In this document: positions 14,320 through 57,054 of the stretch, in pieces
Position numbering within the stretch: the stretch's first letter is position 1
Layout: each line of letters starts with the position of its first letter
The notes under the pieces: generated by a model
What the model was told of the DNA's origin: nothing
Seen by the model: only the letters and a program-made list of their open reading frames with translations
The model's database searches: none
Made by a program: the position numbers and the translations under genes
From: an uncultured euryarchaeote
Lineage (GTDB): Archaea; Thermoplasmatota; Poseidoniia; Poseidoniales; Poseidoniaceae
Direction of reading: 5' to 3'
NCBI GenBank assembly: GCA_937899865.1
Contig: CALBRH010000051.1
Coordinates: 120,214-184,213 of the forward strand
DNA: 64,000 bases

Positions 14320-17300
14320 ATGGTAAAGATAGAGTATCTAGATAATCCACAAGATACTGAGGATCTACTTGCTATACTCTGCCCACCAGTTAGAAATTGG
14401 TTCAAAGATAAATTCCCAGATTTTACGAGACCACAAAAACTAGCAATACCTGCGATTATGGATAGAAAACATCTATTGCTATGTTCACCCACTGGTTCAG
14501 GTAAAACTCTAACCGCATTTTTAACAGTGATTGATCAATTAGTAAGGATGGCGCTGGATGGCAAATTACAGAAAAAAGTTCACTGTGTATATATTTCTCC
14601 TATCAAAGCATTAGCCAATGATATTCAAAGAAATCTTATTGGGCCATTAACTGAAATCTCAGAAAAATATCTACCAGATAGAGCTCAAGAAATTAAAGTC
14701 GGTCTTAGGACAGGTGACACACCACAATCAGAACGACAGAGGATGTTAAGACACCCTCCACATATCTTGATTACAACCCCAGAAAGTTTAGCTATTGCTA
14801 TTACTTCACAGAAATTCCAACCATTGGTAAGTGAACTTGAGTATATGATTGTAGATGAACTTCATTCACTTGTTCCTACAAAAAGAGGAGTCCACTTAGG
14901 ATTGACATTATCATACTTGGATACTTTATTGCAGACTCCAGTACAAAGAATTGGAATTTCTGCAACTATGGAACCTTTGGAAAAAGTTGCTGAATATCTT
15001 GTCTCAAGTGATGATAAAGAAAGCATAGGTGAAGAGAGTCATGTTAGTATTGCAAAGGTATCAGGTTCTCGTGAATTAGACATGGACATTATCATACCCG
15101 ATAACAGATTTAGTGATTTATCTGTTATGAAAGTTTTAGAGAAAAATATCGAGGTAATTGCTGATTTAATCGCTGCTCATACAACTACTTTGGTATTTGC
15201 CAATACCAGAAAAATGACAGAAACGTTAGTTCAAAGACTTAGACCTCACCTCGGTGATTTAATTGCTGGACACCATGGTTCAATGGACAAAAAGATCCGT
15301 CTTGATGTAGAGAAGCGATTAAAGCATGGTCATCTGAGAGCTGTTGTCACATCATCATCTCTAGAAATGGGAATTGATATTGGTTCTGTTGATTTAGTGA
15401 TACAAGTTGGTAGCCCTGGAGATATCGCTACTGCATTACAACGTATTGGCCGAGCAGGACACCACGTTGGAGGCATACCTAGGGCAAGGTTTTTGCCAAC
15501 CAGTGTTGATGACTTAATTGAATTGGCTGCTCTTCAATCTGCTATTCAAAAAGGTGACATGGACATTCTTCACTTCCCTGAAAATAGTTTGGATGTTGTT
15601 GCACAATTTATGATTGGTTTAGTTATAATTAACCAAATTGACATTGATGAAGCATACGAAATAATTGTTAATTCTTGGTCATATCGAAATTTCGAATATG
15701 ATGATTTCATCGAAGTTTTAGACATGCTTGAAGATGAACGAAGAATATGGGTTGATTGGGAAGAAAACATCTATGGTAAACGTGGATATTCAAGAATGAT
15801 ATACTACACAAACATTGGTACTATAGCACCTGATAATTCATATCTTGTATTCAATGCTGAAGGTTCAGTATTGGGGCAATTGAGTGGTTCATTTGTATCA
15901 AATCTAAGAAGTGGAGACGTGATTTTGCTCGGTGGCTCAACTTATCGGGTAACAAATATACAGGGTACTAGAGTTAATGTTACAGCAGTTACCGGTTATA
16001 GACCAACTGTTCCATCGTGGTCTGGAGAGGCTCGTTCAAGGTCTAGTGAATTGTCAGGAGCATTATTAGAACTAATTGGACATTGCATAGTGGCATTGCG
16101 TAAAGAGATGGATCCAAGAATGATACTATGCGATGCATATGGATTATCTACAATAGTTGCAAATTGCATAGCACGTCACTTAGAAGAGCATTCTTTAGAT
16201 TCATTCCAAGTGCCTGATCCAAACCGAATATTGGTCGAACAAATCATAAGTAGTGGCCATCCAACATATATGATTACTACTTGCCGAGGAAGAGGTTTCA
16301 ATACTGCACTTGGATATTTCCTTGCAGGTTTAGCGGAATCTAATGGCACTAGTGTCATTGAAATGTCATTTGACGAAAATGGCCTATTACTAAGAACATC
16401 TCAAGAAATCGATCCAAGGGATATGTATAACTCATTTAGAAATCAAAACCACATAGAAATTATTGAAAGATACATAATTAATACACAAATTTTTGCTAAG
16501 CGATTTAAGGAAGTTGCAGGTCGTTCATTGATTATTCCCAAGAGAATTGGTGCTGATGAAATTAGTCCTCAAGTTTTCCAACAAAAGGCAGATTCCTTGC
16601 TAAATAAACATAGAACTATCGAAGATAGTCTGCTGATGAGAGAAGCAAAAAATGAGATAATGTTTGCTGATATTGACCTCAATAGCTTAAATGATTTCCT
16701 CAAGTCATGTATTCAAGGTAATGCAAGAATTGTTCACCAAAAAATGACTATCCCATCTAGACTTGGGATGTCATTGTTCATGTCTGCATTCGAAGATTTA
16801 ATGTCCATGAAAACTAGAGCATTCTTAGTCAAGGATATTGACCCAACCATATTACAAAGGTTACTTGGAACACGAAGTCTAGCTACTGAACTATCAGAAA
16901 AAGAACTTAATGAATATTATCTCAACAAAGCACCTATTCCAAATGATGCTAATGGATTACTAAAATTAATGTCACATGGTGGAGGTCTTGAAAAATCATT
17001 CAATAACCCATTATACAAAGAAAAATTGCAAGGCATTAACATCGATATACTACGCGGATGGGTTCAGGAATTATGCCTCAAAGGAGAAATTGTCAAAATA
17101 AGAAATACTGGTTCATCAGAACTAGATGAAAAATGGTTTACTCCATATATGGCTGAAATTCATGGTACTTTGGGTTGTTTAGCAAGTAATGGCGGCAAGG
17201 AAGTCAAAGATCTTAGAAATTTACTTACTGAAGGATTTGAGTATGAAATCGCAATTGAATATGATGGATTAAAACCGACAAAATGGAAGACGATGAAGAT

Positions 17301-19605
17301 TAGCGACCCACATGTTGCTATGCGTGTGAAGATAATTGAAATGCTCGGCTGCGAGGGCCCAAAATTAGCTAAGCAAATTGAAGAACGTTTACCATTTTCA
17401 AAGGAGTTAGTCGACAGAATATTACACGAATTAGAATCGAGAAATGTTATCTCTGTTGGTTTTTACAAGCAAACAGATGACGCTGAATATATTCTCAAGA
17501 TTGATGAACATCGCTTAACTGGAGGAGAAGAGGAAGTTGTTGAGTATCGTTGGGTTCAAAACATGGTTTTTGACAAATCATTTGCCAAATATGATGATGG
17601 TTTTTCTGCATTTGACTCACATGTAATTTTCCAGAAACAGCAGGAACTTCTCTATCGTGTTGATCAATTTAGATTTAAAGATTGGAAAGATTTACAGATG
17701 GATTCTGATGTTATTATGGGACGTCTATTACACAATAGAATTGGATATACCACGAAGAAAAATATCCCCATGCTACTTGGATTAAAACCTGAACCATGGA
17801 TTGGCCCTATGGAAGAACAATTGCTAGAAAAAATACCACCAGGCGTTAATGTTACAAGACAAGAAATTATGCAAGATTTTCCAAAAGGTGATGAGTTTAA
17901 ATCTCTACAGAGAGACCTAAAAAGAGCGTTGGATAATCTTGAGCGTCAAATGTTAGTGGTTAAACAATTTGAAGATGTCATTGGCCGTAGAAGAAAATTA
18001 TCCTTATTCCATAGAGTCCATGGCGTATACGAACCAACTAGTTTTGAAGATTCATTAGTTGATGTAATTAAGCGGTTGGGGCCAATCAAATCTCATACTC
18101 TAAGATTCTTTGTCACTAAGTCCTATGAAGATTTAACTATTGCATTAATGAATTTGGAAAAATCAGGAAAAATCGCCAAGGTAGTGTCATTGGTACCTGA
18201 ACCAGAGGCATTTTATTGTATGCCTGAAGAGGTTGAAAAATTAAAGAGACCTAGTAGGGAAGATAGTAAATTAAGAATTCTTACTCAATCTGACCCATAT
18301 GTTTCCCGATTTATATGGGAGGTTAGAAGTATCTTGGACAGAGGTTGGTATCTCCCTGTTTTCAAAGGTGTTGACCCCATTGGCAAGGTATTGATGTTCA
18401 AAGTTAATGACTATCTTGAGGTTAAAGACTTGCATATCCCAAATGCTTACATTGAAGAATTCTGTGAGGTATTTTCCCTACTTCTCGATAATCACTCAGA
18501 CCAGTTAGTAGATGTAGCAGTTCTAACAAATTTCAACAGTGAACCTGTATCTCAATTAGACCCTGAGACTAGAAAATATTTGGAAAATATTGGATTTAAA
18601 TTGACAGGAGAACGAATGATTCGAGGTGGTATAGTTGACCCGCAACCAAGAGAAATCGCAGAACGGGCATTATTTCACCGTCACTTTTTACACCAAAACA
18701 CAAGATTGGAAAATGAAGTTATTGCAATGCGAAGGATTCCAGAAGTTCGAGATGATTTTGCGTTAAGAGGTCGATGTGAAGTTTATCGTGCTAACCTCAA
18801 GAGTATGGCCAGTGCGAATAGATTGCACCAAGGTGTAAATCTTCGAGGGCATCAAGTTTGGGCAACGTATGAGCATTTCCAAGATTTATTGATTATTCGT
18901 GGCATCCCTGCAGATGAGGATTTACTTGATATTGTAGATTTCTTTTCCACTAATTCCGATCCAAATATATTCAAAGAAAGACATGCATTATCACAATCTG
19001 AATTCAGAAAATTGATTCAGCCATTGATTAGAACAGGACATATAGTTCAAGATTTTAGAGGTGGTTTTAGAACTGTTGCTATAAAAAGTTCAATCGATCC
19101 TACTGAGTTGCGTAAAGAATATTTACGTAATATGGTTAAAGAATTTCCAATTATTACTTTGAAACAATTCATGAGGTTAGCTGGAACACCATTCAAACCT
19201 GAGGAAATTAAATCTGTACTAAACTCATTTGAAGAGGATGGCACCTTGATTAAAGGATTCTTGATCGAAGATTTACATGAAGTATGTTGGGGTCGTAAAG
19301 AATTACTAGATGAGGCAAAGGATATTCGGCCAATCAGAGACTTTGTTTTACCACCAAGTGACCCAATATCACCATATTTTGCAGATGTTCTGAAAGAAAA
19401 ATTCGGATTTGGGTCAGCATATTTAGTTTTCAAAAATGCTGAGCCAGTCGCAGCATTCAAAGCAAATACTCGTAACAAAATTATCGAAGTCAAGGATTAT
19501 GAAGGTTCTGAAAAAGGGTGGAGAATAGTCAAAGAATTTGCTTGGGAACATCAAATGCCTCTTGAAACTGAATTAAGAATCGGTGGCAAAAAGATGAACC
19601 GTTAG
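14320..19605 (+). CDS. lhr: Lhr-like large ATP-dependent helicase (1761 aa) with a long C-terminal extension
   Basis: The N-terminal half has SF2 helicase motifs (PTGSGKT, DELH, SAT, QRIGRAGH). It is one uninterrupted ORF. Confidence 0.8.
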   Translation: MVKIEYLDNPQDTEDLLAILCPPVRNWFKDKFPDFTRPQKLAIPAIMDRKHLLLCSPTGSGKTLTAFLTVIDQLVRMALDGKLQKKVHCVYISPIKALANDIQRNLIGPLTEISEKYLPDRAQEIKVGLRTGDTPQSERQRMLRHPPHILITTPESLAIAITSQKFQPLVSELEYMIVDELHSLVPTKRGVHLGLTLSYLDTLLQTPVQRIGISATMEPLEKVAEYLVSSDDKESIGEESHVSIAKVSGSRELDMDIIIPDNRFSDLSVMKVLEKNIEVIADLIAAHTTTLVFANTRKMTETLVQRLRPHLGDLIAGHHGSMDKKIRLDVEKRLKHGHLRAVVTSSSLEMGIDIGSVDLVIQVGSPGDIATALQRIGRAGHHVGGIPRARFLPTSVDDLIELAALQSAIQKGDMDILHFPENSLDVVAQFMIGLVIINQIDIDEAYEIIVNSWSYRNFEYDDFIEVLDMLEDERRIWVDWEENIYGKRGYSRMIYYTNIGTIAPDNSYLVFNAEGSVLGQLSGSFVSNLRSGDVILLGGSTYRVTNIQGTRVNVTAVTGYRPTVPSWSGEARSRSSELSGALLELIGHCIVALRKEMDPRMILCDAYGLSTIVANCIARHLEEHSLDSFQVPDPNRILVEQIISSGHPTYMITTCRGRGFNTALGYFLAGLAESNGTSVIEMSFDENGLLLRTSQEIDPRDMYNSFRNQNHIEIIERYIINTQIFAKRFKEVAGRSLIIPKRIGADEISPQVFQQKADSLLNKHRTIEDSLLMREAKNEIMFADIDLNSLNDFLKSCIQGNARIVHQKMTIPSRLGMSLFMSAFEDLMSMKTRAFLVKDIDPTILQRLLGTRSLATELSEKELNEYYLNKAPIPNDANGLLKLMSHGGGLEKSFNNPLYKEKLQGINIDILRGWVQELCLKGEIVKIRNTGSSELDEKWFTPYMAEIHGTLGCLASNGGKEVKDLRNLLTEGFEYEIAIEYDGLKPTKWKTMKISDPHVAMRVKIIEMLGCEGPKLAKQIEERLPFSKELVDRILHELESRNVISVGFYKQTDDAEYILKIDEHRLTGGEEEVVEYRWVQNMVFDKSFAKYDDGFSAFDSHVIFQKQQELLYRVDQFRFKDWKDLQMDSDVIMGRLLHNRIGYTTKKNIPMLLGLKPEPWIGPMEEQLLEKIPPGVNVTRQEIMQDFPKGDEFKSLQRDLKRALDNLERQMLVVKQFEDVIGRRRKLSLFHRVHGVYEPTSFEDSLVDVIKRLGPIKSHTLRFFVTKSYEDLTIALMNLEKSGKIAKVVSLVPEPEAFYCMPEEVEKLKRPSREDSKLRILTQSDPYVSRFIWEVRSILDRGWYLPVFKGVDPIGKVLMFKVNDYLEVKDLHIPNAYIEEFCEVFSLLLDNHSDQLVDVAVLTNFNSEPVSQLDPETRKYLENIGFKLTGERMIRGGIVDPQPREIAERALFHRHFLHQNTRLENEVIAMRRIPEVRDDFALRGRCEVYRANLKSMASANRLHQGVNLRGHQVWATYEHFQDLLIIRGIPADEDLLDIVDFFSTNSDPNIFKERHALSQSEFRKLIQPLIRTGHIVQDFRGGFRTVAIKSSIDPTELRKEYLRNMVKEFPIITLKQFMRLAGTPFKPEEIKSVLNSFEEDGTLIKGFLIEDLHEVCWGRKELLDEAKDIRPIRDFVLPPSDPISPYFADVLKEKFGFGSAYLVFKNAEPVAAFKANTRNKIIEVKDYEGSEKGWRIVKEFAWEHQMPLETELRIGGKKMNR

Positions 19606-19661: not shown

Positions 19662-22600
19662 ATGCGAGCATATAGCAAATCTGTTTTGATTGTGGTTCTT
19701 TTTTTGTTGTCATTAACTGTTCCTGTAATGTCTGTCAGTGCTCAGGGTGAATCTCCATCTCAAATAGAAGTTTTACATACTGCTATCAATCCAAATAATA
19801 ACAAAACTTACCACTTACTCAGTGAAGGATCTTGGTCAGATTCGGCAGAGGTTGCACGTGCATTAGATGGTTTTCTAACAACTGTTGATGATGCTGTAGA
19901 GAATCAATGGATTTTCGAAACCTTTGCTAATTACGATCAACAATCTAGGCATTTATGGATAGGTCTATCTGATTCAAATCAAGAAGGCGACTACCGTTGG
20001 CATGATGGCACACCTTTCCATTACAGGGACTGGGGACAAGATCAGCCTTCAGCGAGTGATGCGGAAAATTTTGTTCACATAGCTGGAACTAACATGGGCA
20101 ACATAATGCCTGGTACATGGAACGATTTAGATGATGACCCACAATACTTCCCAGTTTATGGTGTGGTTGAAGTTGGTGAAGCAGTAGACTATGCTCTACG
20201 ATTTGATGGTAATGATGACCAAATAATTATTGATGAAGACATTCCTTCTTTCACAGATAAAATTTCAATTACTGCTTCGATTAATTCACCAGATAACAGC
20301 GGAATACAATTTATAACTATGCTTGGTGATTATGGATGGGGACTTTACATTAACAATGGACTTGTTGCCTATGCAAGCGAGTATTCAATTTCTCGACATC
20401 CAACATCTAACACCAGTATAGTAGAAGATGTTTGGACCGAAATATCGGTAGAAATTGAAGAAGGGATAGGTGGACATTTCCTAATCGATGGAGAATTGGC
20501 TGGTGAAATTAGTGCTGAAGACGCTAAGATACCACAAGGCGACTTCGGTTCCAATGATTGTTTTCAATCTGGAGAAGATTGCGATGAATTGTACATAGGT
20601 AAGATGGGAGCAGGTTGTGACTGCAATTATTATCGGGGTATGATTGATTCTTTGTCAATAAATAATCAAGAACATTCACTAACTTGGGAATTCCTTGAAG
20701 GTGAAGGTCCAATCACAGAAGATGAAACTGGTAATTTCCAAGGTGAAATTGTAGGTGCTTCATGGGTAATGCCTGATGGGACAATTGTTGCCCAAGCAAT
20801 CCAGTTATTTTCTGATGAAGAAATATATGGTATAAGTGGCCAGAGAGGCGACCAATTACTATTTTTTGTTGAGATTGAGTCTTTGACCAAGAATCTATTT
20901 ATTGAGGCATTCTTTGAGTATAATGGTGAAGAATGGGGTGATTCTTCATTTGATGCATACTTTAGTCATGACGCCATACCGAATTCATGGGACTATGATG
21001 AAATTTATGACGATGTAACAGAATACATGTGGATGGATTGGTCGTGGCCTGATGAAGGTATTATGTGGATGGTAATTGTTCCAAGAACAGACATAGAAGA
21101 CCTTGCAATTTATACTTATATGGATATTGCAGATCCGCCCCCTTCGATAGATGAAATGACTGAATTAGTCAATGAAATACCTGTAACTGGTCAAAAAATA
21201 AACGCTGGTAGAGGTGCTCCTGATGAAGATAGAGTATTGTATTATTATGTCAATGTTACAGAAAATCTCTCAGCTTTAACTGTAAAAACATATGGTGGTA
21301 GCGGTAACATTGATTTGGCAATTTCCTCTCAAACTGTCCCTGACCCATTCAATTCTTTTTGGGGCTGGAATGAGCCTTGGTTTGAGGAATTTGACGACGT
21401 AGGTATTTTTGGTGAATTTGTTAATATTGATACTAAATCAGATTGGTCAATTGGTCCTGGAAATGAACACCAAGTAAATCTCTATGATGTTAAACCTGGA
21501 ATATACTACATAACCGCATACACCTATGGTAAGGCTAATGATTTTACTATAGTAGCATCTATGTCATTTGAACCTCAAAATATTGAGCCAGAAGATGCAA
21601 TTGAGTTAACTCCAGGCATACCATATGGCCCTCTAAGTGGCTATAATGGATTAAGTCAGTATTTCAAAATCAATGTTCCTGAAGCAACTGAAAGATTGGT
21701 TGTCGACCTTAATTCTGGTTTTGGTGAGGCATCTCTTTACATGAAATTATCAGACTCGCCAACAACTAATGACTACATGCACAAAAGCAACAGTCCTGGT
21801 TCTGGTGATAAAATAGGGTTTAATGATCCAACTCCAGGAATGTGGTATATCTTACTTGATACAGAAATGGTGTTTGGTGATGTTACAATAACTGCTTCCT
21901 TTGAAGATAGATATGTTTGGGAATATGATGGAAACCCAATTCAGTTATTCAATGGGGAAGAAATTTCAGGTATTGAGGCTCCAACTGGTGAGTCACTAAA
22001 TTTCTTTGTGGAATTAGAAAAACCAGGTGAATATTTAATGATACAAACCTATGGAGGTAATGGTGATTTAGTAATGACTGCTACTGGAAATTCTTTAGTA
22101 TTCGGTTTCGAGGATTTCTTTGATTTCTTTGAAGATGACAAGTCTTTTGACGAAGAAGGCAGACAAAGACCTGGTAACAATTTTGATAGTGAAGAAGTAA
22201 CACTTACTTCTGATGGATTCGGAACAGAACAAATGATTTACCTAGATCTACCTGCTAACGGAAGATTTGACATTTCTGTTGATGCACTAGAAGAAATCAG
22301 TGAAGTTACAATTGTGGCAAGTTGGGTTTACTCTGACTTCATAGAACCAATTGAAGAACCTCAAGATCCAATCGTTAGCCAAAACTGTCGAGATATTGCC
22401 GAAAACGAGATGACTAGTAAAGATAAAGATAGCAATGGCGTACTAAGTAAAACTGAATTTGAGTCAATCATATTAAATGACAATAAATTAGATTTTACAA
22501 AATCTGATATCAATGTTGATGGTGAAATTGAATTCTCTGAATTATTGCAGATTTCATGTTCATGTAATAATGAACTAGAATTGATATTTACTCAGTTATC

Positions 22601-23297
22601 ACCGGAAGATGATGAAGTTAGCATAGAGAAATTATCATCACAAGTATATGAAAATAAGTACAACTTCTTTGACATAGACAGTAATTCAAATTTAAGAATA
22701 TCACGTTCTGAAATCGACATCCTAATACTACTTTGTGACACAACCTTTGATGCATTTGATGGTGATGGTGATGGAGTTCCTGATGATGAAGATGCATTTC
22801 CAAATGATCCTGATGAAACCAAAGACACTGATGGAGATGGTGTTGGCGACAATGCCGACTTAGCCCCTTCAGTGTCTAATGATTTGATTTATTCAGCTGG
22901 AGCAATTCTAGCTATTGGATTGCTTGCCATGTTGGTTCTTGTATCAAGAAGTTCTAGAGGAGGTGATGTGAATTCAGCGTGGGAATCAGATAAGCAGTAC
23001 AATCTGGCTGAACAAATGCTTAACATGCAAGAGTCACCAATGGTTATGGAACAACAAATTGAGACACCACAAGACTCGTATGAAGTAGATAATGTCATGG
23101 ATAAAAGAGAAATTGTTGATAATAAAACAACCAATAGTGACAATCTTTTCGAACAATTACTTTCCCAACCTGAGTCGCCTCCAAATCAGTTACTTGGAAT
23201 GATTGATAGTAATGGTATTGAAGTGATTGAATTCCCAATGGGTTCAGGAAATATGTGGCAAAGAAGCAATCCTAATCAATCTTGGATCAAAAAATAA
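19662..23297 (+). CDS. Giant secreted/cell-surface protein with C-type lectin, PPC-like, EF-hand-like and D-rich Ca2+-binding repeat domains and a C-terminal TM helix
   Basis: The N-terminal signal peptide is followed by a C-type-lectin signature (WIGLSDSNQEGDYRWHDG..W). Several ~100-aa beta-rich modules follow (YYYVNVTEN..TYGGSGNIDL). EF-hand-like DxDxNG loops, a DGDGDGVPDDEDAFPNDPDETKDTDGDGVGDNAD repeat, a TM helix and a ~110-aa tail complete the protein. Confidence 0.7.
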   Translation: MRAYSKSVLIVVLFLLSLTVPVMSVSAQGESPSQIEVLHTAINPNNNKTYHLLSEGSWSDSAEVARALDGFLTTVDDAVENQWIFETFANYDQQSRHLWIGLSDSNQEGDYRWHDGTPFHYRDWGQDQPSASDAENFVHIAGTNMGNIMPGTWNDLDDDPQYFPVYGVVEVGEAVDYALRFDGNDDQIIIDEDIPSFTDKISITASINSPDNSGIQFITMLGDYGWGLYINNGLVAYASEYSISRHPTSNTSIVEDVWTEISVEIEEGIGGHFLIDGELAGEISAEDAKIPQGDFGSNDCFQSGEDCDELYIGKMGAGCDCNYYRGMIDSLSINNQEHSLTWEFLEGEGPITEDETGNFQGEIVGASWVMPDGTIVAQAIQLFSDEEIYGISGQRGDQLLFFVEIESLTKNLFIEAFFEYNGEEWGDSSFDAYFSHDAIPNSWDYDEIYDDVTEYMWMDWSWPDEGIMWMVIVPRTDIEDLAIYTYMDIADPPPSIDEMTELVNEIPVTGQKINAGRGAPDEDRVLYYYVNVTENLSALTVKTYGGSGNIDLAISSQTVPDPFNSFWGWNEPWFEEFDDVGIFGEFVNIDTKSDWSIGPGNEHQVNLYDVKPGIYYITAYTYGKANDFTIVASMSFEPQNIEPEDAIELTPGIPYGPLSGYNGLSQYFKINVPEATERLVVDLNSGFGEASLYMKLSDSPTTNDYMHKSNSPGSGDKIGFNDPTPGMWYILLDTEMVFGDVTITASFEDRYVWEYDGNPIQLFNGEEISGIEAPTGESLNFFVELEKPGEYLMIQTYGGNGDLVMTATGNSLVFGFEDFFDFFEDDKSFDEEGRQRPGNNFDSEEVTLTSDGFGTEQMIYLDLPANGRFDISVDALEEISEVTIVASWVYSDFIEPIEEPQDPIVSQNCRDIAENEMTSKDKDSNGVLSKTEFESIILNDNKLDFTKSDINVDGEIEFSELLQISCSCNNELELIFTQLSPEDDEVSIEKLSSQVYENKYNFFDIDSNSNLRISRSEIDILILLCDTTFDAFDGDGDGVPDDEDAFPNDPDETKDTDGDGVGDNADLAPSVSNDLIYSAGAILAIGLLAMLVLVSRSSRGGDVNSAWESDKQYNLAEQMLNMQESPMVMEQQIETPQDSYEVDNVMDKREIVDNKTTNSDNLFEQLLSQPESPPNQLLGMIDSNGIEVIEFPMGSGNMWQRSNPNQSWIKK

Positions 23298-24230
23298 TCA
23301 AGCAGATTTTTTCTTGGGTTGCATTATTCCTAAAGGTTTGAGAAGTCTTACAATATGTCTATGCAATTCAGGAAGGATTTCAAACATTATTAGAGCCATG
23401 AAGAACATAGCAAAAAGTGAGACAAATCTTGCTGCATAATTATGTCCAAATTCAAAAATACTCATGCCATAAAATGACCAAGTTGTGTAAGTTTGATGCA
23501 TCCAAATCAAGCCTACATTACGAAATACATTCAATATATGAATAACTGGGATAGTAAACAAAATCGCTCTTATTCTTCGACGCCAATCTAGATCTAAAAC
23601 TGCAATCGCTCCAATAAAAATCACCATAGATTGTAGTGCAGTACAAGCTAAAACGAAATTTATACCAATGAATGAACCATCAGCCATTACTAACTCTGTT
23701 TGAAATGGAAATTCACCAATGGTTTCTGAACTAAACCAACGATTACCATCCCAATTATCCCAAGTAACTTTGCCAGATGATGTTTCCACCCATGTTTCTC
23801 CAAGATGAATATCTCCAGTTCCTGAGATTCGATAAAACAAAGCAACTTGTGATGCAACAAACCAAATTGCCAAAACATTTAGCCAAGGTACGTGAGAAAT
23901 AAGTAAGTACGGTCCACCTGCATAAGCCATCGCACCACGCGCCCAATTCAAGGCTTTTCTTGCCCTCAAATCCAAGGTATTGGTTTCCCATCGAGCAATT
24001 CCGATAGTAAGTGGCAAAGCTGACAAACTCATTACTGTTAAAATTAAGTCGCCTTTTTCTTGATAATTCCATGAACCTAAAAAGAAGTAAACCCCTACAC
24101 ACAACCAGCCAATCTGTGCTATTCGGGCTGATTCTCTAGATCTCATATGCCAAGAAATTGCTAAAGAAACTAATCCAATTGCACCAATAATTGGAACTAC
24201 CGAATTTGCCTCCATGATGATTCCAATCAT
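23298..24230 (-). CDS. Archaeosortase/exosortase-family membrane protein
   Basis: It is an ~8-TM protein. The candidate active-site Cys lies in VLACTALQS and the conserved Arg in NVFRNVGLIW, about 37 residues downstream. This matches the exosortase/archaeosortase Cys...N..R spacing. Confidence 0.5.
   Translation of the reverse strand: MIGIIMEANSVVPIIGAIGLVSLAISWHMRSRESARIAQIGWLCVGVYFFLGSWNYQEKGDLILTVMSLSALPLTIGIARWETNTLDLRARKALNWARGAMAYAGGPYLLISHVPWLNVLAIWFVASQVALFYRISGTGDIHLGETWVETSSGKVTWDNWDGNRWFSSETIGEFPFQTELVMADGSFIGINFVLACTALQSMVIFIGAIAVLDLDWRRRIRAILFTIPVIHILNVFRNVGLIWMHQTYTTWSFYGMSIFEFGHNYAARFVSLFAMFFMALIMFEILPELHRHIVRLLKPLGIMQPKKKSA
23304..23318 (+). terminator. T-rich stretch (TTTTTTCTT) immediately after the surface-protein stop; candidate archaeal intrinsic terminator
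   Basis: A poly-T run lies ~10 nt downstream of the stop at 23297. Archaeal RNAP terminates at oligo-T tracts. The run overlaps the 3' end of the convergent archaeosortase gene. Confidence 0.3.
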
Positions 24231-56052: not shown

Positions 56053-57054
56053 TCATGACTCTTCGAGAACTTCACTCGTTTCATTGTTCGCATCTGCCCG
56101 TGAACTTCCAATAATTACCAAAAGGATCCCAATTATCAAAATAGGCCCTCCAATCCAAGTCCAAAAACCTGGTAATCCAGTATCAAACAGCATAAATCCA
56201 ATTAGTGAGCCAATAATTGGTTCCATAGTAACACTTGTTGAAACCACAAGAGGTGGAACATATCTAAGACAGGTGTTTAAACCAGTATGCCCAAGTAATC
56301 CAGCTATCAAGGCAAGAGCAAGAAACCATCCAAAGTAATCCATTTGAATCCATCCAAATACTCCAAATTGAGAAAAATTATCCTCAACAAAATACGAGGC
56401 TGGAATTAAAATAACAGCACCAATTAAGGTGACTGGAAAAGCATAGAGGAAAATTGGCATCCATTTCCTGAGAACTCTACCACTGACAATGTAACCTACG
56501 ACAAATAATGCTCCTAGGAAAGCCAAAAAATCACCCCATGCCGTTACAGTTCTACCTCCTTGCTCATCGCCTAAATCTATCAAAGCCAGTGCTGCTCCAA
56601 TAAATCCTATACAAGCACCAATAATTTCCCAACGCGAAGGACTACGATAATTAACAAAATATTTCGCAATTAAAGCCATTCCAAATACAATAATAAGTGG
56701 ATGAGCAGTTACAAAAAGGAGTGAATGAGTCAATGAAGTTTCATCTAAACTTGCAACCCAAGCACCAAAGTGTAATGCCAAAAATATTCCTCCACCAAGC
56801 AACCAGAGAATTGTTTCCCTTTCAGTAAATCTGTGCTTCAAAGATTGACCATGAATCCTCCATTGCATTATTGCTAAAGGCGCTAATACGAGAGAAGTAA
56901 GTTGTAAACGCCATGATGCACGTAATAGGGGTGGTACATCATCGACCTGTTGGAATAATGCTCCAGCGCTTGAAACACCAAATACAGCAGCAATCAGTAG
57001 CAGCCACACCCAATTAGGTGTGGCTCTTAGAGAGGTCATCAAACTCACACTCAA
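56053..57054 (-). CDS. DMT/EamA-like permease (10 TM)
   Basis: It has two internally similar 5-TM halves. The stop overlaps the upstream transporter gene by 4 nt. Confidence 0.4.
   Translation of the reverse strand: MSVSLMTSLRATPNWVWLLLIAAVFGVSSAGALFQQVDDVPPLLRASWRLQLTSLVLAPLAIMQWRIHGQSLKHRFTERETILWLLGGGIFLALHFGAWVASLDETSLTHSLLFVTAHPLIIVFGMALIAKYFVNYRSPSRWEIIGACIGFIGAALALIDLGDEQGGRTVTAWGDFLAFLGALFVVGYIVSGRVLRKWMPIFLYAFPVTLIGAVILIPASYFVEDNFSQFGVFGWIQMDYFGWFLALALIAGLLGHTGLNTCLRYVPPLVVSTSVTMEPIIGSLIGFMLFDTGLPGFWTWIGGPILIIGILLVIIGSSRADANNETSEVLEES

Follow-up and report, generated by a model that had tools for sequence, protein, structure and literature searches.

A lectin-type surface protein encoded tail-to-tail with archaeosortase A in Marine Group II archaea is probably a membrane-retained adhesin and not a dedicated sortase substrate

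Residues C173, R214 and R253 of the archaeosortase A (ArtA) of Haloferax volcanii are critical by mutagenesis (PMC9263693). As described in PMC7157517, permutation of the Pro-Gly-Phe (PGF) residues blocks processing by ArtA (J Bacteriol 198:808); the enzyme also processes HVO_0405, in which the tripartite signal is central and a large C-terminal domain lies beyond it, and this protein is described as the product of a strain-specific gene fusion which retains PGF. The artA gene serves many substrates, and in Methanosarcina is syntenic with pssA/pssD, not with the substrates (PMC7157517). In the order Poseidoniales, adhesion genes of the 'thrombospondin' type are widespread (Rinke et al. 2019, PMC6461757). 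The locus described here resides in a 64-kb window (64,000 nucleotides of contig CALBRH010000051.1, from an uncultured archaeon; all coordinates are those of the window), and is made up by two convergent genes, one coding for ArtA, the other for a type I single-pass surface protein of 1211 amino acids (aa), hereafter BIG. The window has a GC content of 36-41%, matches marine metagenome contigs, including the 164-kb ERZ841439 NODE_11, and the orthologs of its genes are annotated as Candidatus Poseidoniaceae, which correspond to Marine Group II a (MGIIa).

BIG is a core membrane protein, single-copy and of type I, in the archaea of Marine Group II (MGII, order Poseidoniales), and belongs to the 'thrombospondin' adhesin class already noted in this order. 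At a probability of about 0.65, it acts as a membrane-retained, Ca2+-dependent adhesin or receptor of the lectin type, equipped with a module for the docking of a partner, and is not the dedicated substrate of ArtA. Full-length orthologs of about 1200 aa are 46-97% identical in Poseidoniaceae, and the gene is single-copy, present and syntenic in every species of the family sampled. The gene and its parts, from the N- to the C-terminus and including the transmembrane (TM) anchor, are the following; AF2 stands for the AlphaFold2 model, and pN for nonsynonymous divergence.

19662-23297 including the stop codon, plus strand: BIG, a type I surface protein of 1211 aa with a single TM pass (open reading frame (ORF) call; full-length orthologs).
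19662-19742, plus strand: signal peptide, residues 1-27, with predicted cleavage at ...VSA/QG (hydrophobic segment 7-25, conserved).
19830-20177, plus strand: C-type lectin, residues ~57-172, QPS128...E135...WND153-155 (PF00059; PDB matches).
20184-20666, plus strand: LamG or concanavalin-like domain, residues ~175-335 (PF13385 in orthologs; AF2; Foldseek).
20679-22346, plus strand: four beta-sandwich modules, residues ~340-895, two scoring as PPC (Pfam PPC; AF2 strand blocks; ColG match).
22359-22745, plus strand: helical EF-hand region, residues ~900-1028 (loops found by regular expression; AF2 helices).
22746-22859, plus strand: two TSP3-like Asp-rich Ca repeats, residues 1029-1066 (motif match).
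22860-22943, plus strand: pre-TM APSVSNDLIYS and TM helix, residues 1067-1094, then SRSSRGG (hydrophobicity; alignment).
22944-23177, plus strand: juxtamembrane piece with W1107 and AEQML, then an acidic linker rich in N/S/E/Q, residues 1095-1172 (alignment).
23178-23294, plus strand: terminal beta-module, residues 1173-1211, PxxLxGMxxxxGxExIExPxxSGxxWxR......W (conservation; pN; AF2).

The start of the protein at M1 is backed by the conserved signal peptide, in which S17 and P21 are invariant in orthologs. Public gene calls begin BIG 22 codons later (1189 aa; window positions 19662-19727 skipped), and the signal peptide is thereby removed. The lectin, with a mean identity to orthologs of 76%, is the best-conserved large domain. 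Residues 57-155 match Lectin_C (PF00059) with 37 bits vs. a cutoff of 22.6; residues 44-160 find as best PDB sequence matches the C-type lectin-like domains (CTLDs) of the mannose receptor, the PLA2 receptor and DC-SIGN (best E 8.6e-16), and WIGL (W99), QPS128, E135 and WND153-155 are all invariant among orthologs. Residues 1-299 are devoid of cysteine, so that none of the four canonical lectin cysteines (two disulfides) is found, and the specificity tripeptide is QPS, neither QPD nor EPN.

The remaining part of the ectodomain was delineated with the help of an AF2 model of the mature chain, built on 43 aligned orthologs (mean confidence score, pLDDT, 70.8; most beta-domains 75-93). The model features, in this order, the lectin, a LamG-like domain, four beta-sandwiches, the helical EF-hand region, the Asp-rich segment, which is of low confidence, the TM helix, a disordered stretch and a terminal beta-unit. 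The LamG-like domain, missed by the original prediction and added by the model, has pLDDT values of 80-93, and the region is matched by Foldseek to laminin LG, neurexin LNS and pentraxin. Two stretches score as PPC (PF04151, 57.6 bits vs. a cutoff of 25.9, best at 665-732); the beta-sandwiches match by Foldseek the Ca-dependent collagen-binding domains of ColG, and neuropilin is a further match of the model. Two canonical EF Ca loops are found by regular expression at residues 921 and 949, and the Pfam EF-hand models (PF00036/PF13499) score 12.3 bits vs. a cutoff of 25.4 in this copy, and above the cutoff in orthologs (e.g. 35.7 in P0295). The pattern DxDxDGxxDxxD occurs twice, at 1033 and 1055, in the TSP3-like segment, which is the most conserved of BIG (88% identity to orthologs); TSP_3 (PF02412) has no match in BIG at E<=1, and models of TSP3-containing proteins in NCBIfam match weakly. 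BIG carries 6 N-glycosylation sequons. The original prediction, made from the letters alone, had listed a signal peptide, a C-type lectin signature, PPC-like beta modules, EF-hand-like loops and a D-rich TSP3-like Ca repeat, and all of these are recovered, the EF-hands below the Pfam threshold in this copy and the repeat by its motif only.

BIG has one TM helix (1076-1094), followed by 117 residues, in good agreement with the unusually long tail of ~110 aa originally described. The tail is made up by three parts in orthologs, a conserved juxtamembrane piece, a variable acidic linker and a conserved module of ~39 residues. The linker is 18% identical to orthologs, has a pN of 0.342 and is disordered in the AF2 model; the module is 54% identical and has a pN of 0.110. 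These values come from 103 ortholog pairs with synonymous sites near saturation, and are used as relative values only; as the pN of the whole BIG is 0.116, the module equals the protein average. The module is thus constrained by purifying selection of ordinary strength, and the tail is no disposable leftover. Modelled in isolation, the module folds as a small antiparallel sheet with a mean pLDDT of 90.5.

A profile of the module, compared to 1.84 billion representative proteins, gave 69 matches, mostly BIG orthologs or fragments at contig ends. The same module is found in proteins with different ectodomains, as follows.

P0289, 1583 aa: unrelated ectodomain; module C-terminal, after the TM helix.
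P0293, 1509 aa: RCC1 propeller and TSP3 repeats; module C-terminal, after the TM helix.
P0299, 1099 aa: TSP3 repeats; module C-terminal, after the TM helix; cluster annotated as Candidatus Poseidoniales.
Several short TM proteins, 71-260 aa: various ectodomains; module C-terminal.
P0290, 389 aa: TSP3-like domain; module N-terminal, before the TM helix (type II).

P0291, P0297 and others carry it as well. In the other module-bearing proteins the sequences preceding the TM helix are unrelated to that of BIG. The module always lies on the predicted cytoplasmic side, whichever terminus that is; it therefore behaves as a cytoplasmic domain, and not as a C-terminal sorting signal. This undescribed cytoplasmic mini-domain, present on several single-pass surface proteins of Poseidoniales, is the modestly new element of the locus. 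No Pfam family was found for it with 24 module sequences (E<=10), and neither Foldseek nor a search of the PDB sequences with a profile gave a match. A WW domain (PF00397) was considered and rejected, as no WW came up in Pfam, in the PDB-sequence profile search or in Foldseek. Weak matches spread over several stretches, of the P0280 type, come from WG-repeat proteins, and were set aside as partial and spurious. That the module serves a set of Ca-dependent adhesins as a shared docking site in the cytoplasm, which couples them to an intracellular partner with no cleavage, is a possibility advanced tentatively, though a likelier one than the release of the module by ArtA. A second conserved cytoplasmic tail motif, GLPEGWTMEQWEYYGQQYL, is found in an arylsulfotransferase-like family (P0371-P0397, P0406, P0420), where it closes the tails, 50-90 aa long, of members of the Thalassarchaeaceae type. 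Motifs of this kind, conserved and rich in aromatic residues, seem to be common in the cytoplasmic tails of surface proteins from Poseidoniales.

As judged from its domains, BIG would be exported via its Sec-type signal peptide, and its own TM helix would keep it in the membrane. The Ca2+-dependent glycan-binding head, predicted to be formed by the lectin with its QPS...WND site and by LamG, may bind algal or particle glycans, and would be carried by a stalk built from four beta-sandwiches of the PPC type, the EF-hands and the TSP3-like Ca repeats. In the cytoplasm, the 117-aa tail would consist of a disordered spacer and of the ~39-aa beta-module shared with other single-pass surface proteins; the module would most likely dock an intracellular partner, surface adhesins being in this way coupled to the cell interior. 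The tail-to-tail arrangement with artA would be an inherited gene order within a long collinear housekeeping block.

The sequence around the TM anchor, APSVSNDLIYSAGAILAIG, lacks Pro-Gly-Phe at the N-terminal edge of the helix. TIGR04126, the PGF-CTERM model, gives no match to BIG (E<=1), nor to the C-terminal 171 aa taken alone (E<=10), and the absence of a canonical PGF-CTERM, pointed out from the start, is upheld. The same model scores proteins of another Poseidoniales surface family, the PGF-CTERM tail of which is SIPGFGLILSITAALGATLVATRRE, at 25.3 (P0412) and 24.0 bits (P0400) vs. a cutoff of 24.5; the null result on BIG is therefore meaningful. The basic cluster SRSSRGG does follow the helix, but this feature is generic to TM anchors. 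A signal at this place would not be at the extreme C-terminus, as the whole tail, including the conserved folded module, lies beyond the helix. The conserved 'ND' ahead of the helix continues the register of the TSP3-like unit that comes before it (AFPND... / SVSND...). This 'ND' is gone, only Y-S being left, in a divergent lineage (44-45% GC; BIG 29-31%, ArtA 48-51% identical), in which the two genes are still convergent and abutting, and embedded in the same block.

The ArtA gene and the junction between the two genes are composed as follows.

23298-24230, minus strand: ArtA, 310 aa (TIGR04125; TIGR04178).
23520-23645, minus strand: ArtA catalytic core, from the Cys196 codon (23643-23645) to the Arg237 codon (23520-23522), LACTALQS...HILNVFRN.
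23289-23312, no strand: convergent zero-gap junction, AAAAAA-TAA/TCA-AGCAGA-TTTTTT (read from the sequence).

The stop codons of the two genes touch each other, with 0 bases in between (TAA/TCA), in line with the tail-to-tail pair of a large ORF and a membrane-protein gene initially reported, both ORFs being found at the expected coordinates. The neighbour had been called archaeosortase-like. A hidden Markov model (HMM) check agrees: TIGR04125 scores 94.4 bits vs. a cutoff of 75 (residues 15-298 on positions 5-261 of the 271 of the model), and the exosortase/archaeosortase signature TIGR04178 scores 57.6 bits vs. 23 (residues 193-287), all other archaeosortase/exosortase subfamilies falling far under their cutoffs. 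Orthologs are named 'archaeosortase A (PGF-CTERM-specific)' in public sources. An alignment of 12 orthologs (59-86% identity) shows no variation at Cys196, Asn234, Arg237, His263 and Arg268, and Cys196 and Arg237 are spaced by 41 residues, as are C173 and R214 in H. volcanii; the invariant R268 is a candidate counterpart of H. volcanii R253. The 310-aa protein is thus an archaeosortase A, predicted to be functional, in keeping with known biology. Of the eight-TM protein with Cys...N..R spacing initially proposed, the Cys196...Asn234-x-x-Arg237 arrangement holds; the hydrophobic segments that are clear by Kyte-Doolittle analysis are about 7, typical of a polytopic membrane protein, and the number of eight is not verified.

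At the junction, the Lys codons which end the two proteins (IKK* in BIG, KKKSA* in ArtA) form A6 and T6 runs, and the 3' coding end of each gene provides an oligo-T tract just beyond the stop codon of its partner. From their sequence, these tracts may work as archaeal terminators for both genes. No stem-loop terminator was found at the BIG/ArtA junction, and neither tRNA genes nor Rfam families at gathering threshold were found in the 64-kb window.

Gene order was monitored in one genome per species, for a sample of 80 ArtA loci, all from Poseidoniaceae, 79 of which extend past ArtA and are informative. BIG is the next gene to ArtA in 79/79 of these loci. The order ADSL-o197-o81-TiaS-HAD-ArtA-BIG-Lhr-GGR is collinear in all 79 too, and a region more than 20 kb off (transketolase, arylsulfotransferase-like, transaldolase, ProRS, SRP54) is equally collinear. 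ArtA is divergently paired with the HAD phosphatase/TiaS unit; BIG and ArtA are convergent, and therefore not co-transcribed. One clade hosts an Old-Yellow-Enzyme (OYE)-like oxidoreductase gene, with or without a glutathione S-transferase (GST)-like gene, between BIG and ArtA, and four species loci (L057, L072, L074, L075) carry BIG in inverted orientation at its usual site, with ArtA and Lhr on either side, and with loss of the terminal module, as seen in L072. As the whole block is collinear, and the pair is broken or inverted in some clades, the BIG-ArtA adjacency is no more informative than the BIG-Lhr adjacency. The original prediction had noted that sortase-family genes often lie beside a dedicated substrate; such a link is not sustained here by synteny, the housekeeping genes on either side being at least as well conserved in their adjacency.

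The loci with OYE-like insertions are L097-L101, L105-L107, L116 and L118 (e.g. L100:13619-15562); the GST-like gene was read in L100, and in L106 it is presumed only from an equally long gap of ~2.2 kb. The gene directly upstream of BIG (14320-19605) codes for a 1761-aa Lhr-type helicase with DEAD, Helicase_C, WHD_Lhr, DEAD_assoc and faint AlkZ-like domains, which is 74-98% identical across Poseidoniaceae, and exceeds all other genes of the block in conservation.

Candidate substrates of ArtA were searched by scanning the C-termini of all ORFs in the window and in 136 loci (2.07 Mb), derived mostly from the same syntenic regions. Recurrent matches to the tripartite pattern are restricted to a small polytopic 145-aa protein and to the arylsulfotransferase-like family. 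The sole true PGF-CTERM in the scan resides in the 54%-GC contigs L121/L122, which belong to another lineage. A window ORF (56053-57039) ending with LPGF and a TM segment was rejected as a sorting signal, the protein being polytopic (8 hydrophobic segments). The arylsulfotransferase-like secreted proteins of MGIIa end in a TM helix and 1-9 basic residues, with variable pre-TM sequences and no PGF, and homologs searched elsewhere in MGIIa are orthologs at the same syntenic place. In related lineages, the family represented by L119:4703-6796 displays three anchoring styles, a TM helix with 1-9 basic residues (MGIIa), a TM helix with a long motif tail, or a canonical PGF-CTERM (P0400 and P0412, on L121/L122). 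Just upstream of the window, a conserved ORF of 198 aa that matches no family (L119:7552-8148) closes, at its very C-terminus, with GGIGIPDIVALISLSLVFLFLRKK, a TM helix with a short basic tail. In the literature searched, no paper was found on an archaeosortase or sortase in MGII or Poseidoniales.

BIG could instead be a substrate of ArtA recognized via a non-PGF signal (NDLIYS, TM helix, RxxR), in which case ArtA would cut it at the outer face of the TM helix, the ectodomain would be lipid-anchored, and a tail of ~13 kDa freed into the cytoplasm, possibly to act as a signal. The zero-gap convergent adjacency, kept across Poseidoniales down to 29-31% BIG identity, would suit this idea, but is explained by the collinearity of the block, and is interrupted or inverted in clades which keep both genes. 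A conserved pre-TM motif, a TM helix and a basic cluster do occur in the tripartite order; the 'ND' of the motif is, however, part of the TSP3-like repeat register, and has disappeared from the divergent lineage, in which the two genes still adjoin, and the pre-TM sequences are unrelated in the other module-bearing proteins. H. volcanii ArtA handles the central signal of HVO_0405, yet this protein is described as a strain-specific fusion with PGF (PMC7157517), and P-G-F, required in the only system tested, is missing from BIG, on which TIGR04126 is silent while the positive control scores. In P0290, moreover, the module is N-terminal, where release by a sortase would be impossible. The MGIIa DNA examined revealed no further PGF-CTERM protein, and the score of ArtA (94 vs. 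a cutoff of 75 bits) exceeds the threshold by a modest margin, such that a shifted specificity is conceivable. On balance, processing of BIG through a non-PGF signal looks quite unlikely. The version in which an ArtA of shifted specificity cleaves BIG, lipid-anchors its ectodomain and frees the module to engage a partner common to surface proteins is very unlikely; if true, it would represent a sortase-driven link from surface to cytoplasm, akin to regulated proteolysis, in an archaeon.

Several observations weigh against a membrane-retained adhesin with a docking module. The BIG-ArtA neighbourhood outlasts local rearrangements, and the pre-TM APSVANDLIYS is unusually conserved within Poseidoniaceae. 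HVO_0405 provides a precedent for a processed signal with a large domain beyond it. A canonical PGF-CTERM protein turned up neither in the window, nor in ~10 kb of extra flank, nor in the MGIIa loci examined, a weak negative drawn from 2.07 Mb; because the real substrates of ArtA in the lineage were not found, elimination provides no argument against BIG as a substrate. One BIG clade (P0105, L072) is devoid of the terminal module, which is hence not indispensable; the module-less BIG of L072 ends with ...ISGVLEDLFD, as does the P0105-type protein. Of the two alternatives offered by the original prediction, a novel sorting signal with release of the tail is disfavoured, and an unrelated adhesin is favoured by the lack of PGF, the conserved module and the collinearity of the block.

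BIG might also be mainly a structural protein of the envelope, S-layer-like or part of a canopy, anchored by its TM helix, and its Ca modules would then stabilize a lattice. Its status as a single-copy, syntenic core gene in all the Poseidoniaceae species sampled, the strong purifying selection (pN 0.116 at saturated pS) and the many Ca-binding elements fit with such a role, and PMC6461757 mentions no S-layer protein for Poseidoniales. The best-conserved large domain is, however, a lectin with an intact Ca/sugar site, which points to ligand binding; the N-glycosylation sequons are only 6, and the architecture resembles the ectodomains of eukaryotic receptors (neuropilin, neurexin), not known S-layer folds. 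A mainly structural role is thus unlikely, and BIG is better viewed as a lectin-type adhesin or receptor.

In the surface ocean, archaea of Marine Group II rank with the most abundant of the uncultured microbes. To our knowledge, their attachment to particles or algae has been inferred only from gene lists. The BIG locus offers a concrete candidate receptor with a putative sugar-binding head and a cytoplasmic module, conserved throughout the order, and an entry point to the coupling of the outside to the inside of the cell in archaea. It also illustrates that the adjacency of a sortase and an adhesin gene, though conserved, is no evidence of a substrate link where the whole chromosomal region is collinear.

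Compared to known systems, the ArtA of this locus resembles H. volcanii ArtA (HVO_0915), as both are polytopic members of the same HMM family, with the catalytic Cys and Arg 41 residues apart. Unlike in known ArtA/PGF-CTERM systems, the adjoining protein lacks PGF and continues for 117 residues past the TM helix, and no PGF-CTERM substrate was identified in the MGIIa DNA examined. BIG is like HVO_0405 in having a secreted N-terminal part, a TM helix, basic residues and a sizeable cytoplasmic C-terminal part, and differs from it because PGF is absent, and because the architecture of its tail is ancient and order-wide. The module recalls a WW domain, as divergent copies feature W...SG...aromatic pair...W over ~20 residues and a predicted small antiparallel beta-sheet; the first Trp is absent from the BIG module, and this is a resemblance only.

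With prokaryotic TSP3/PPC adhesins BIG shares the large size, the Ca-binding, multi-domain organization and a presumed role in attachment to particles or algae, to which it adds a Cys-free C-type lectin, LamG, and a TM anchor with a conserved cytoplasmic module. With metazoan mannose and PLA2 receptors and DC-SIGN it shares WIGL, WND and QPx at the Ca2+/sugar site, and the logic of a membrane receptor with a tail; unlike these C-type lectin receptors, BIG is archaeal and Cys-free, has QPS in place of QPD/EPN, and features an unrelated stalk and tail.

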